64,000 nt of DNA from a virus, in the IMG/VR virus record IMGVR_UViG_3300036772_000557, positions 1 to 64,000 of that record. The stretch is one strand, 5' to 3'. Of this stretch, positions 2,564 to 6,123 are shown one piece after another (positions within the stretch are counted from its first letter, which is position 1; each line of letters begins with the position of its first letter). The notes beneath the pieces are model-generated. The model did no database searches, was not told the origin of the DNA, and worked only from the letters and a program-made list of their open reading frames with translations. A program made the position numbers and the translations under genes.

Positions 2564-3012
2564 CGCGATTTCCCATCAACGAGACGAAGCGCTCGCTCTG
2601 CCATCTCAATTGTGTCACGCGATAGCAAATCCAGCGCTCGCCCCCGGCGACCGCCCTCCCCACATTCGATCAATAGCCGCCTAAGGGCGTGGTATAGAGC
2701 GGGGCCAGCCGACCGCTGAAGGCGCTCAGTCTCCTGCGGCGTAACTACGCGCGTTTGTGGGTTGCGCGCCTTTAACTCCGCGTAACTCATCAAGTCCCGA
2801 CCTTCCACGCGATCAGGCTGTGTCATCGCCGCCTTGGCGTCATCACAACATTCGATACAAATCCGAACATTACCAGGTCCAGCGACGGGGCGATGCTGAA
2901 GTTCCGCTTCAGATCGAGCACAAAACGAGCAATAGACAACAGGGGTGATCATCTCTGCAAGTTTCCATAGCTTGCCTGATCTGTCCATCTGATAACTCGC
3001 GATGCGTTTCAT
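2560..3012 (-). CDS. protein with ClpX-type C4 zinc-binding domain
   Basis: YCSFCARSEAELQHRPVAGPGNVRICIECC resembles the ClpX N-domain (CSFCGK...LIAGPGVYICDEC); alternative start MITP at 2952. Confidence 0.75.
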   Translation of the reverse strand: MKRIASYQMDRSGKLWKLAEMITPVVYCSFCARSEAELQHRPVAGPGNVRICIECCDDAKAAMTQPDRVEGRDLMSYAELKARNPQTRVVTPQETERLQRSAGPALYHALRRLLIECGEGGRRGRALDLLSRDTIEMAERALRLVDGKSR

Positions 3013-3048
3013 ATCATTCCCTCCGTTCCATGGGGTTGGGTGGGGTGA

Positions 3049-3342
3049 TCATGGCTGCAAAATTGCCGCTATTGCTGGCTCGACGAGGTCACGAAATGCT
3101 GACTCGTGATAGGATTTCGTGTCATAAATAACTTCGCCGCTAAAAAACTCGATATGGCCAAGACGCTGGACGTTTTTACTTATGTGACCATCGCTATCGA
3201 TAAAGCGCCCATCGAAATAAATGCGGCTCTTGCCGTTCTTCTCCCACACCTTGGCGCTCAGCAAATAGGTTCCGTAACCTGAAGTGACTAGGCGCTCACC
3301 GTTCAGCGCGGCAGATATTTTTTCGATTAGCTTAGGCATCAT
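3049..3342 (-). CDS. hypothetical phage protein (KVWEKNGKSRIY motif)
   Basis: GGAGGG RBS before MMPK; first gene after leftward promoter; lower GC. Confidence 0.65.
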   Translation of the reverse strand: MMPKLIEKISAALNGERLVTSGYGTYLLSAKVWEKNGKSRIYFDGRFIDSDGHISKNVQRLGHIEFFSGEVIYDTKSYHESAFRDLVEPAIAAILQP

Positions 3343-3363
3343 TCCCTCCGTTCCACCACCCTC

Positions 3364-3392
3364 AATATAGAATCTCCGGAACGCCACGTCAA
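3364..3392 (-). promoter_or_regulatory. sigma70-type promoter TTGACG-17-TATATT (leftward)
   Basis: cgtcaa 3387-3392 and aatata 3364-3369 on + strand, 17-bp spacer. Confidence 0.8.
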
Positions 3393-3421
3393 GTTTTTTC
3401 TCATCCCGACGCATATTTTCA

Positions 3422-3450
3422 TTGACGACCTCACGAGGCCACCCTATATT
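3422..3450 (+). promoter_or_regulatory. sigma70-type promoter TTGACG-17-TATATT (rightward)
   Basis: TTGACG 3422-3427, TATATT 3445-3450, 17-bp spacer containing palindrome CCTCACGAGG. Confidence 0.8.
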
Positions 3451-3530
3451 CCAATCATCAGAAACGAACCAACGCCATTCCCGTGAAAAAGGCCGGGGTC
3501 GCTACCTCCTCTAAGCCGGAGACGCGGGGA

Positions 3531-3583
3531 TGGGTCGCGGTGATGAGACACCGCCTGATGAGAGCCAGCGAGGACGAAACCCA
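3531..3583 (+). ncRNA. type III hammerhead ribozyme
   Basis: TGGGTC|GCGGTG-atgaga-CACCGC-CTGATGA-G..C-GAAA-CCCA: complete catalytic core, GUC cleavage triplet, perfect 6-bp stem I, stem III TGGGT/ACCCA; stem II is weak. Confidence 0.75.
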
Positions 3584-3883
3584 ATGCGCAACACGAATTA
3601 CTTCGGCCGGAAGATTGGCGCCGTTGTTACCGAGAAGCGCCGCGGCACGGTCTCTAGCGTGGTGGTCGGCGATGTTCGCCGCTTCACCGCCAACGAGCAG
3701 GAAATGGGGTCTGGCATCCTCAAGTTCATTCCTAAGATCGAATTGTCGGGCCCGGCTGCGAAGCGCATCGCTATAGGCCTCAGCGCTCTCAAAGCCGCGC
3801 AATGGAAACATGGTTGTGCCACTTGGGACTGCCTCGGCGATTACGACACCATGCTGTACTCGTATCGTGAGCGGGCGGCTTAG
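3584..3883 (+). CDS. hypothetical protein (99 aa)
   Basis: ATG directly after the ribozyme; GAGGA RBS inside stem II; ends in AA. Confidence 0.7.
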   Translation: MRNTNYFGRKIGAVVTEKRRGTVSSVVVGDVRRFTANEQEMGSGILKFIPKIELSGPAAKRIAIGLSALKAAQWKHGCATWDCLGDYDTMLYSYRERAA

Positions 3884-3931
3884 GCCGCCTTCCGCTTTCC
3901 CCCTCAACCCGATGAGCAGGAGCGAAACCCA

Positions 3932-4468
3932 ATGAGCGAGACGGAGTTTCCCGCAGAGGTCGTCAAGGACGCCACCCTCCCTAACGCTTGGCGAGTCGAA
4001 AAGCTTGATAGCGATGGCGACGGTGGTGTCGATCTAGCGATCTTCGATGGCCCAAATGCAGAAGCGCGAGCGCGGGAATATGCAGCCTGGAAATATGGAT
4101 CAAACGGCAGCAAGATCATCGCCGGGCTGCAGGATGCGCTTGCGCATGTTCGCGGCGATGTGACGGCTGCGCGTGTGTCCACAGTCAGCGATCCAGAACG
4201 CGAGAAGATGACGAAGTCTCAAGTGTGCGCTGATCGACTCCTTGGTGCAGCCGGGTTTGGCCCAGACGTTTTCGATACCGAGGAAGGCCACTTTGCTGGC
4301 TATGATCCAATGCTCAGCGCTTTCCTGTATCGCAAGGGGAAGATGCACGTCGCTGTACGACCCGATGGTCGGTTTGAATGGCACACCGACAGCGGGCGGT
4401 TTGGCGGCGGCGGCAAAGCCACGCTTGACGACGAAAGCATCGAAAGTCTCGCCCGTGCTACAGAATAG
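3932..4468 (+). CDS. hypothetical, apparently chimeric phage protein
   Basis: AGGAG RBS; N-terminal WRVE..DGDGG..AIFDGPNAEARAREYA domain, central SKIIAGLQDALAHVRG segment. Confidence 0.65.
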   Translation: MSETEFPAEVVKDATLPNAWRVEKLDSDGDGGVDLAIFDGPNAEARAREYAAWKYGSNGSKIIAGLQDALAHVRGDVTAARVSTVSDPEREKMTKSQVCADRLLGAAGFGPDVFDTEEGHFAGYDPMLSAFLYRKGKMHVAVRPDGRFEWHTDSGRFGGGGKATLDDESIESLARATE

Positions 4469-4515
4469 GCAAGCCGCCCGAACACCGACGAAACTGAGGA
4501 TCAGGAGTGAAACCC

Positions 4516-4701
4516 ATGAATCTCACGGACAGGCTTTATCGCGCCCTCGCGGTCCTGGTAGCGCAACATGATCGGCCACACGGCTTTAGCGATGAGCATT
4601 GGTATCGCGAGGCGCTTGAAACGGCGCGCGCCGCTCTAGCAGACGCCTTCGTGGAAATGAACTCATCAGACAACGCCACAGACAGTGGATCGCCACAATA
4701 G
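4516..4701 (+). CDS. cassette gene, hypothetical
   Basis: CAGGAG RBS; stop TAG inside repeat; ends TDSGSPQ. Confidence 0.65.
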   Translation: MNLTDRLYRALAVLVAQHDRPHGFSDEHWYREALETARAALADAFVEMNSSDNATDSGSPQ

Positions 4702-4763
4702 GCGAGCAGCCCCGAACACCGATGAAATCAACTACTTACACGTCTGTCGAACAGGAGGAACTG

Positions 4764-4985
4764 ATGCTCGGTACCAACAAACCAATTTGGTGGAGCCCAA
4801 CAATGCCGCACGACGAGGTCACGATTGACGAGCGCCTAAGAAACCTCGGTTATACGCACAGCAAGTCTCGACTCCTAGCTTATGCATCGACAGGAAAGCA
4901 CGAAATTCGCGATCCGCAGGGCAATGTGGTTGGACACTTCACTGCCAGCGAAGCGTGCGAGTTACTCGCTCGTCTCGGTGGGTAA
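4764..4985 (+). CDS. cassette gene, hypothetical
   Basis: AGGAGG RBS at 4753-4758 before MLGTNK. Confidence 0.65.
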   Translation: MLGTNKPIWWSPTMPHDEVTIDERLRNLGYTHSKSRLLAYASTGKHEIRDPQGNVVGHFTASEACELLARLGG

Positions 4986-5015
4986 TAGGCGAGCAGCCCG
5001 AACACCGAGGAAATC

Positions 5016-5216
5016 ATGACCGTTAAAATAAATCCACAAAATCTCCCGCCAGACAAGGCGCGCCACACAATAACAATCGGACGTGGCGGCGGGCGAGCTC
5101 TCATCATCAACGGCAAGTTTTTCTTGCCAAAAAAGGGAACTGAAGACGAATGGATATCTGACGATGGATCAACGATCCAGGGAACAAAACATACAGACGG
5201 TTGCTCGCCACAATAG
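5016..5216 (+). CDS. cassette gene, hypothetical
   Basis: GAGGA RBS supplied by repeat tail; ends TDGCSPQ. Confidence 0.65.
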   Translation: MTVKINPQNLPPDKARHTITIGRGGGRALIINGKFFLPKKGTEDEWISDDGSTIQGTKHTDGCSPQ

Positions 5217-5261
5217 GCGAGCAGCAGGAACACCGCCGAAATCCAATCATTGGAGGAGCAG

Positions 5262-5492
5262 ATGAACGATACCGCCTACGAGATCCGCAACTGCTACATT
5301 AGCAACGGCGAGGAAATCGTTGCGGAGCGTCTTTATGGCTATTTCGATTACACCGAGCTCGAAGAGTTTATTCAACGCTTTATTCGTAGCATTCTGGCTC
5401 CAGGCTGGAGGTCGTACCTGAGCATCGTGGATCACGACGGAAGAGAACGAAATTTCGTGAAATACGCCGCAGACGGCGGCTCGCCACAATAG
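5262..5492 (+). CDS. cassette gene, hypothetical
   Basis: GGAGGAG RBS before MNDTAY; ends ADGGSPQ. Confidence 0.65.
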   Translation: MNDTAYEIRNCYISNGEEIVAERLYGYFDYTELEEFIQRFIRSILAPGWRSYLSIVDHDGRERNFVKYAADGGSPQ

Positions 5493-5522
5493 GCGAGCAG
5501 CCCGAACACCGGAGAGCAAACG

Positions 5523-5753
5523 ATGTTTAAATTCGAGCCAGCGTTCGGCGAGTCAGATCGCCAGCATGAGGTAACCGACTGGAGCCAAGCAAAGGACCAA
5601 TTTTTGGAGCACCAAACTTACGAAGGCGCTGAACGCTATATCCTGACTACCCTATCGCTTCTCAAAGGGAACCTGATTGGTAACGACGAATATCGGACCA
5701 TGATCCGGCGCGTCGGGAAGTTCATTGACGCGTTCGGCGTCTACACACCTTAA
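5523..5753 (+). CDS. cassette gene, hypothetical
   Basis: GGAG RBS in repeat tail; TAA abuts the sixth repeat. Confidence 0.65.
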   Translation: MFKFEPAFGESDRQHEVTDWSQAKDQFLEHQTYEGAERYILTTLSLLKGNLIGNDEYRTMIRRVGKFIDAFGVYTP

Positions 5754-5786
5754 AATAGGCGAGCAGCCCGAACACCGATGAAATTA

Positions 5787-5859
5787 CCCCGTGCGAGTCG
5801 CAGAGCCCGGCCGAAGAGGTCGGGCCGAACAACGGGTGCAAATCCCGTGACGGGGGCCA
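5787..5859 (+). ncRNA. tRNA-like structured RNA ending in CCA
   Basis: Acceptor-like CCCCGT/ACGGGG + G + CCA; T arm ACGGG-TGCAAAT-CCCGT; central hairpin GCCCGGCC-GAAGA-GGTCGGGC; no canonical D or anticodon loop. Confidence 0.55.
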
Positions 5860-5884
5860 ACCAGATGAGCAGGAGCGAAACCCT

Positions 5885-5965
5885 ATGATTATCGCGATGA
5901 TATGCCTTAGTGCCCTAATCACGGCATGGATGGCTACTACCGATACCCCGAGCGCCGCTGCATAA
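5885..5965 (+). CDS. 26-aa hydrophobic peptide
   Basis: MIIAMICLSALITAWMATTDTPSAAA*, preceded by AGGAG RBS in a hammerhead-like unit. Confidence 0.45.
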   Translation: MIIAMICLSALITAWMATTDTPSAAA

Positions 5966-6123
5966 CCTTATTCAAAGAGGAGTAACCGATCGAGGAACCG
6001 ATCACCCCTGCTGACGGGGCCGCCCCTGAATATCGAGGCAGGGGCGGTCGGCTAAAGCGCAGGCTCGGCCATCAAACTTCGAAACGCGCTCCCATACAGA
6101 TGAGCGGAACAAGTCTGGCGTGG

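Follow-up and report, generated by a model that had tools for sequence, protein, structure and literature searches.

Hammerhead ribozymes have been described in clusters around prophage genes, with a stem II of one or two pairs (Perreault et al. 2011; PMC3088659). In the haloviruses HF1 and HF2, a hammerhead precedes the first ORF of the early operon by 13 nt, and the 5' end of the transcript was mapped to within 3 nt of the cut (PMC3088659). The role of bacterial and phage hammerheads has been a standing question since their discovery in 2011.

Here we describe an element at positions 3531–3586 of a viral window (the window being the whole stretch of DNA that was analysed, 64,000 nt). It has several features in common with the phage and prophage hammerheads of Rfam family RF00008, namely the core, the GUC triplet, a stem III that is open while stems I and II are closed, a short stem II, and a position between or before small phage genes on the same strand. 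It differs from them in that its stem II is interrupted and it has no conserved loops or pseudoknot. Moreover, it is promoter-proximal rather than placed between cistrons, and the Shine-Dalgarno sequence and start codon are part of the ribozyme or flush with it. Like the HHphage element of HF1/HF2, it lies in a leader before the opening ORF of an early operon; the HHphage element, however, belongs to an archaeal virus, is a salt-dependent structural variant and has its ribosome site outside the ribozyme. Within a limited literature collection, no published description was found of a hammerhead with the Shine-Dalgarno sequence and start codon inside it or flush with it.

RiboJ, ascribed to Lou et al. 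in 2012, is reportedly a synthetic insulator derived from the type III hammerhead of sTRSV, with a strong 4-bp stem II and a 3' hairpin added to present the ribosome site. On paper the two are alike, as in each a type III hammerhead in the 5'-UTR strips a promoter-derived leader and leaves an mRNA beginning with a 5'-OH hairpin. RiboJ is engineered, whereas the window element carries the ribosome site within stem-loop II and its activity is a prediction. Synthetic hammerhead switches (by Ogawa and Maeda in 2008, and by Wieland and Hartig in 2008) are said to mask the Shine-Dalgarno sequence in a stem of the ribozyme. By comparison, relatives of the window element pair a Shine-Dalgarno sequence (CGGAGG) with an anti-Shine-Dalgarno sequence in stem III, while that of the window lies in a poorly paired stem-loop II, with no predicted unmasking on cleavage. 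A further likeness is to the start-associated sequences of cluster K mycobacteriophages, reportedly described by Pope et al. in 2011. In the window too, a short conserved sequence is reused just before start codons (at 3905, 5858, and 4490), with the difference that a hammerhead 3' half can be recognised in it.

The placement of the family, whose members stand nearly always 0–29 nt ahead of a start codon, together with the occurrence in some of them of a Shine-Dalgarno sequence inside the ribozyme (in stem-loop II) or as the 3' strand of stem III, bears on the role of these RNAs. It offers a testable idea, that the 5' ends of single-gene mRNAs, and ribosome access to them, are determined by the ribozymes, in which case the hammerheads of the family would be natural counterparts of RiboJ and of the synthetic ribozyme switches. 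At the locus itself, halves of the ribozyme survive purely as start modules, and cassettes appear to be exchanged at the ribozyme. The window copy is a weak example, and its value is chiefly that of a pointer to the cleaner relatives L004, L007, L027, L074, and L151.

Hammerhead core and start codon

All parts of the element lie on the plus strand, and the letters quoted for 3531–3586 in an earlier sequence-only reading match it exactly. The 5' strand of stem III, UGGGU (3531–3535), was assigned from the sequence and the fold, and is followed by C17 (3536) of the GUC triplet; the predicted cut falls between 3536 and 3537. Stem-loop I (3537–3554) is closed, lies 3' of the cut, and has six Watson–Crick pairs, GCGGUG/CACCGC (3537–3542 / 3549–3554), and the loop AUGAGA. 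The core CUGAUGA (3555–3561), located by the sequence and by the Rfam alignment, is complete from C3 to A9 (C3-U4-G5-A6-N7-G8-A9). Beyond the pair G10.1-C11.1 (3562 and 3575), the stem-loop II region, GAGCCAGCGAGGAC (3562–3575), has one A left unpaired and a mismatch of G with A (3564 × 3574), followed by two C-G pairs and the loop AGCGA; the Shine-Dalgarno sequence GAGGA (3570–3574) is inside this region. Thereafter come G12-A13-A14 (GAA, 3576–3578) and the 3' strand of stem III, ACCCA (3579–3583), where A15.1 (3579) pairs with U16.1 (U3535). Stem III is open and has 5 bp, and the ATG at 3584–3586 abuts it. When the local region was folded, stems I and III were both present in the minimum free energy structure (P = 0.59).

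The ATG that adjoins stem III opens an orphan ORF of 99 aa, P0001 (3584–3883, plus strand). Among 5.8 billion clusters it matched itself alone, where the gene call is the same 99 aa. No relatives of P0001 or of its neighbour P0003 were found in viral contigs, and blastn of 3000–5000 against phage records gave no match. A start at ATG 3530, which would place the motif inside the coding sequence, was considered and rejected: GC3 is about 44% in 3530–3583 as against about 78% in the ORF, several of the 18 codons in 3530–3583 are rare, the public gene call is the 99-aa form, and the relative L010 keeps the leader in a different frame. Hence, the motif is a 5' leader abutting the start codon.

RF00008 aligned end to end at 3529–3585 with 27.9 bits, the gathering score being 48.5. 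The E-value was 4e-4 for 301 b searched with all families, and 3e-5 for the 90-kb provirus record searched with RF00008 alone. Rfam searches of the entire window, one at the gathering score and one at E ≤ 1, reported nothing; the RF00008 match surfaces only in short-range or single-family searches. Clean relatives are also under the gathering score of RF00008 (17.2, 24.3, and 35.6 bits, and one not reported), and this threshold is consequently a weak test for the phage subfamily. Hammerhead types I and II gave nothing meaningful in the 90-kb record, and the sR7, SAH, and sR58 matches of the short search were rejected as being at chance level.

Relatives among viral contigs

Scanning of viral contigs with the 18-mer core half, which also makes up the start modules described below, gave 17 loci, and with three further pattern scans a collection of 106 unique elements was obtained, including that of the window. 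At most of the 17 loci there is a clean type III hammerhead, in which GUC is followed by a 6-bp stem I with the loop UA(N)AAGU, by CUGAUGA, by a 2-bp stem II (G-C/ANGA/G-C), and then by GAAAC and stem III. Covariation was assessed on a 19-member subset. Eight of 13 pairs had changed on both sides, and 96% of the cells were paired; among 500 shuffles of this subset, the covariation score or paired fraction was reached in none, and the pair count in one.

The window was then scored against models of the family. R1, a model built without the window, gave it 24.6 bits (E 1e-4), which is mid-range among the 13–35 bits that R1 gave to clean members of other subclasses. A second model, R2, gave 43.7 bits, a score that is partly circular. 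By these comparisons the window element is homologous to structures supported by covariation. It is very probable that the element at 3531–3586 is a diverged member, by descent, of the phage type III hammerhead family, and the type III core proposed in the sequence-only reading is thus borne out both by layout and by descent. A single version of the window sequence is known, so that the copy itself offers no covariation.

A start codon on the same strand lies within 80 nt in 96 of the 106 elements, at 10–29 nt in 74, and at 4 nt or less in 7. The layout of the window, of the form (A)GGA(G/C)...GAAACCC(N)ATG with the Shine-Dalgarno sequence in loop II or in the 3' strand of stem II, recurs among clean members in L004, L007, L027, L074, L013, and both copies of L151, the latter two being consecutive. 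The ATG of L074 opens a 505-aa AAA ATPase. What had been singled out as unusual, a Shine-Dalgarno sequence in stem-loop II and an AUG right after stem III, proved to be a recurrent natural design among clean relatives.

About half of the UA(N)AAGU subclass carry CGGAGG, itself a Shine-Dalgarno sequence, as the 3' strand of stem III, and ATG follows 6–10 nt later. Members of this type include L009, L025, L028, L030, L031, L034, L040, L041, and L051; their stem III 5' strand (CCUCCGUC) is an anti-Shine-Dalgarno sequence that would be freed by cleavage. A cleavage-gated translation switch is plausible in relatives having the Shine-Dalgarno sequence as the stem III 3' strand.

Two or three hammerheads, each before a small ORF, were also seen on single short metagenome contigs (L125, L130, L132, L143, L161, L113, L127, L137, L142, L151, and L119). 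These contigs resemble the arrays of Perreault et al. 2011. It may be noted that L015 carries a twister-P5 ribozyme (L015:1317–1371, minus strand; 57.2 bits, above its gathering score) about 300 nt from the type III hammerhead of the same phage.

Predicted cleavage of the window copy

A promoter-like sequence of the sigma-70 kind, TTGACG-17-TATATT, is present at 3422–3450 (plus strand). The transcription start predicted from it is at about 3457, some 80 nt before the cleavage site, in agreement with the promoter claimed earlier at about 80 nt upstream. Both hexamers are kept in L010 (TTGACA / TATCTT), with a spacer that differs from that of the window. The RiboJ-like order of the sequence-only reading, in which the ribozyme stands between the promoter and the Shine-Dalgarno sequence with the cut at 3536/3537, was likewise found. 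The promoter has a mirror-image twin on the other strand. There, in 3339–3414 (minus strand), a divergent gene probably starts at ATG 3342, behind GGAGG; a start at 3414 is unlikely, since the minus-strand promoter (3392–3364) would be downstream of it.

Transcription from about 3457 would allow stem III (3531–3535 / 3579–3583), stem I (3537–3554), and a marginal stem II (3562–3575) to fold, and self-cleavage would follow between C3536 and G3537. In this way a conserved leader of about 80 nt bearing the triphosphate would be removed; it can close into a hairpin of its own, and would end in a 2',3'-cyclic phosphate. The mRNA would be left with a 5'-OH at G3537 and the stem I hairpin, followed by the Shine-Dalgarno sequence from stem-loop II and then the AUG. 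The sequence accords with what had been proposed earlier on this point, namely that cleavage would give a 5'-OH mRNA with the stem I hairpin first. The fate of these products and their benefit, like cleavage of the window copy, are deduced from sequence. No RNA run was listed as containing the locus.

Cutting in the window copy is expected to be slow or partial. Its stem II was calculated at +3.2 kcal/mol in isolation, and ranks 100 of 106 for strength; the weakness pointed out in the sequence-only reading is thus confirmed. The layout of this stem, G-A-helix-C, is shared with six clean members (L119, L128, L145, L157, L118, and L123). From L119 (GAGCC...GGCC) the window is one G.A mismatch apart, which leaves it with just two C-G pairs. 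When loops I and II were compared for Watson–Crick complementarity, the longest complement in the window was 2 bp, and no loop I × loop II pseudoknot was recognised in this copy. Among the ten other members with the weakest stem II, nine have a loop I × loop II pseudoknot of 3–5 bp, and the remaining one differs from the consensus by a single base. The loops of the window depart from the UA(N)AAGU / ANGA consensus and have no exact counterpart in any other subclass. Its stem-loop I (18 nt) resembles, without being identical to, that of the equal-length GCGGG-AUGAGUAG-CCCGC subclass.

In the full transcript, another helix takes up part of the ribozyme. Its 5' strand (3472–3485, plus strand) pairs with 3523–3535 in both the minimum free energy and the centroid structures of 3457–3620. 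This leader helix of 13 pairs takes the stem III 5' strand before the partner of that strand is transcribed. The hammerhead fold is 4.5–8 kcal/mol less stable than the leader-helix fold in the full transcript, and the probability of stems I and III together is 5e-6 to 4e-4, the nearest-neighbour folding behind these values leaving out the tertiary energy of the hammerhead core. As its upper part is not kept in L010, the leader helix is best regarded as a physical competitor rather than a proven regulator. We give about an even chance that the window copy still cuts to a useful extent.

Thermodynamic prediction was also applied to the ribosome site. The unpaired probability of the Shine-Dalgarno sequence is 0.29 in the full-length RNA as well as in the 3' product, and that of the 35-nt ribosome footprint (3566–3600) is 0.49 before and after cleavage. 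The earlier proposal that cleavage exposes the initiation region, and so gates translation, is not upheld for the window copy, since the predicted accessibility is unchanged. As ribosome-site access is equal before and after the cut, 5'-end remodelling fits better than a translation switch. The likely benefit would thus lie in mRNA stability and in insulation from the leader, and not in unmasking of the ribosome site.

Start modules, possible cassette exchange and alternative readings

Copies of the hammerhead 3' half occur elsewhere in the window as bare start modules, all on the plus strand. The module at 3905–3934, CAACC-C-GAUGAGCAGGAGCGAAACCC-A-AUG, has U4 changed to C and is without stems I and III. 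The second (5858–5887, U4 changed to A) is 94% identical to 3905–3935, and a weaker third copy (CUGAGGAUCAGGAGUGAAACCCAUG, 4490–4518) was recognised by its similarity to the module. Further bare modules are present at L010:5711–5748 and L013:2387–2427, the common pattern being (N)AAC(C)-N-GAUGAGCAGGAGCGAAACCC-(N)-AUG. In all module copies keeping GAUGAG, C3 is retained and C, A or G stands in place of U4. The copy at 4490 retains CU but reads CUGAGGAU. The common upstream AACC suggests that the bare modules may have spread as a unit. The bare 3' halves at 3905 and 5858 show that, once the ribozyme has been lost, the module is retained as a ribosome site.

Other explanations of the modules were tried and rejected. 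They are not hammerheads in cis, having no stem I and no upstream GGGU-H. A discontinuous hammerhead made of 3531–3536 and the module at 3909 has no stem I complementarity. A 7-codon mini-ORF (MSRSETQ/L) coupled by ATGA in the bare modules is missing from the 3555 and 4490 copies.

L010 is a mosaic relative, which shares with the window the promoter hexamers and the leader up to ...GGGGAUGG. Behind this leader it has a hammerhead with consensus loops, U4 changed to C, and a 3-bp stem III. It may be noted that the elements at L010:5473–5523 and L013:2594–2648 (minus strand) have stems I–III intact and consensus or regular loops, with CCGAUGA for CUGAUGA, and that the variant occurs at a depth of 20 in soil contigs. 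CCGAUGA may be a core change that the ribozyme tolerates, or else an inactivation that has arisen repeatedly.

In soil contigs, 3533 is joined to 3909 via a consensus stem-loop I of the L010 type, and 3528 to 3911 via a near-canonical stem-loop I with CUGAUGA. It follows from the soil and L010 joints that 3534–3908, i.e., the ribozyme body and the orphan ORF (the P0001 cassette), occupies the interior of a hammerhead that is undivided in sister genomes, and that the bare module at 3909 is the orphaned 3' half of the sister-genome hammerhead. Such joints point to cassette exchange at the ribozyme. Sister genomes in the same soil samples are without 3534–3908 and have one hammerhead there behind the same leader. 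Other joints seen in soil contigs run from 3939 back to 3906, and from 4728 back to 3905, so that the modules also occur there in other orders.

The foremost alternative to a copy that still cuts is that the element is an inactive relic, with no useful cutting rate, which is kept as a ribosome-binding module. Its 3' half would then serve as Shine-Dalgarno sequence and spacer (CGAAACCCA), and stem I would be a harmless hairpin. The weak stem II without a compensating tertiary element is in keeping with a relic, as is the competition of the leader helix with stem III; yet the stem II layout is one substitution from that of clean members, and natural hammerheads with a stem II of 1–2 bp can be fast (PMC3088659). 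Two to three ribozyme-dead 3' halves act as start modules in the island, and others in L010 and L013; U4 is replaced in sister elements (L010a, L013, and the soil variant); and predicted access to the ribosome site is equal with or without cleavage. Against this, in the window copy all invariant core bases have been preserved, together with the full set of 11 pairs in stems I and III, whereas the sister modules have altered cores and missing stems. Neutral decay that lasted long enough to remodel both loops would be expected to have reached the core or the stems as well, which argues against a relic. Taken together, we place the probability of a relic somewhat short of an even chance.

Returning to a hammerhead that is active next to its promoter, it may be a device with three roles, in which the leader is cut off as a hairpin RNA, the mRNA receives a 5'-OH hairpin and a ribosome-binding site that comes from stem-loop II of the ribozyme, and the ribozyme halves act as recombination joints for cassettes. 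We regard this combination as possible but rather unlikely.

A regulated ribozyme switch was considered as well. Here the leader hairpin would hold the 5' strand of stem III until a factor (a protein, a small RNA or the speed of transcription) frees it, and cleavage and the fate of the mRNA would be conditional. The conserved non-coding leader (3445–3533, plus strand) ends within the stem III 5' strand. It is 91% identical to L010:5390–5478 between flanks that diverge, and its reading frames in the window and in L010 differ, so that no peptide is conserved. It is also abundant in soil contigs, at a depth of about 208 as against about 6 for the ribozyme version of the window. Conservation and abundance would suit a switch, as would the overlap of the helix with stem III, which is found in the window and partly in L010. 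However, only about 7 pairs of the helix are kept in L010, where its upper part is lost without any compensatory change; the leader fold is no more stable than those of shuffles (z = −0.83); and neither a ligand or protein site nor an Rfam family came to light for the leader. A regulated switch is thus quite improbable.

In a search with our own descriptor, 3531–3586 was the sole match within the window, and 400 dinucleotide shuffles of the window gave no match at stem I and stem III of at least 4 Watson–Crick pairs each. The factorised chance estimate at the observed quality is about 3–7e-6 per window, and about 1e-5 per window overall. As a control, the 18-mer core half was counted in 596 Gb of bacterial genomes; it was present 68 times, never with stems I and III. 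The pattern with ...CGAAACCCNATG had no match in bacterial genomes, and the exact 26-mer of the window core had none in viral contigs. For a single window, the motif lies well outside chance expectation, and it becomes borderline only when the size of the entire scan is taken into account; chance is very unlikely. A look-alike unrelated to hammerheads would suit the score below the Rfam gathering score, the absence from the whole-window results, and a scan of about 250,000 windows, which extrapolates to about one to five chance matches of such quality, but it is very improbable in view of the base-for-base homology to clean relatives outside the loops (L007: GGGUCGCG...CGCCUGAUGAG...GAAACCCAAUG), the hammerheads at the orthologous site in L010 and soil variants, and the 68 stemless core halves.

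Some neighbouring sequences may be mentioned. A tRNA-like, CCA-ended fold at 5784–5863, directly before the module at 5858, was rejected: ARAGORN finds none there, and the Rfam match to Tymo_tRNA-like (16 bits, E 2.9) is not significant. The window and L010 phages share a 44-nt stretch at 95% identity (window 6004–6047 / L010:7595–7638). In L010 it begins a sub-threshold match to Proteo-phage-1 RNA (31.8 bits vs 42). That RNA was not recovered at 6004–6047 of the window, where only DUF2693-FD appeared (17 bits, E 0.45). Between single small ORFs at 4464–5785, the window has six copies of an intergenic repeat (..CUCGCCACAAUAGGCGAGCAGCCCGAACACCGAUGAAAU..), which matches no Rfam ribozyme family and is found again at L010:6257–6302.
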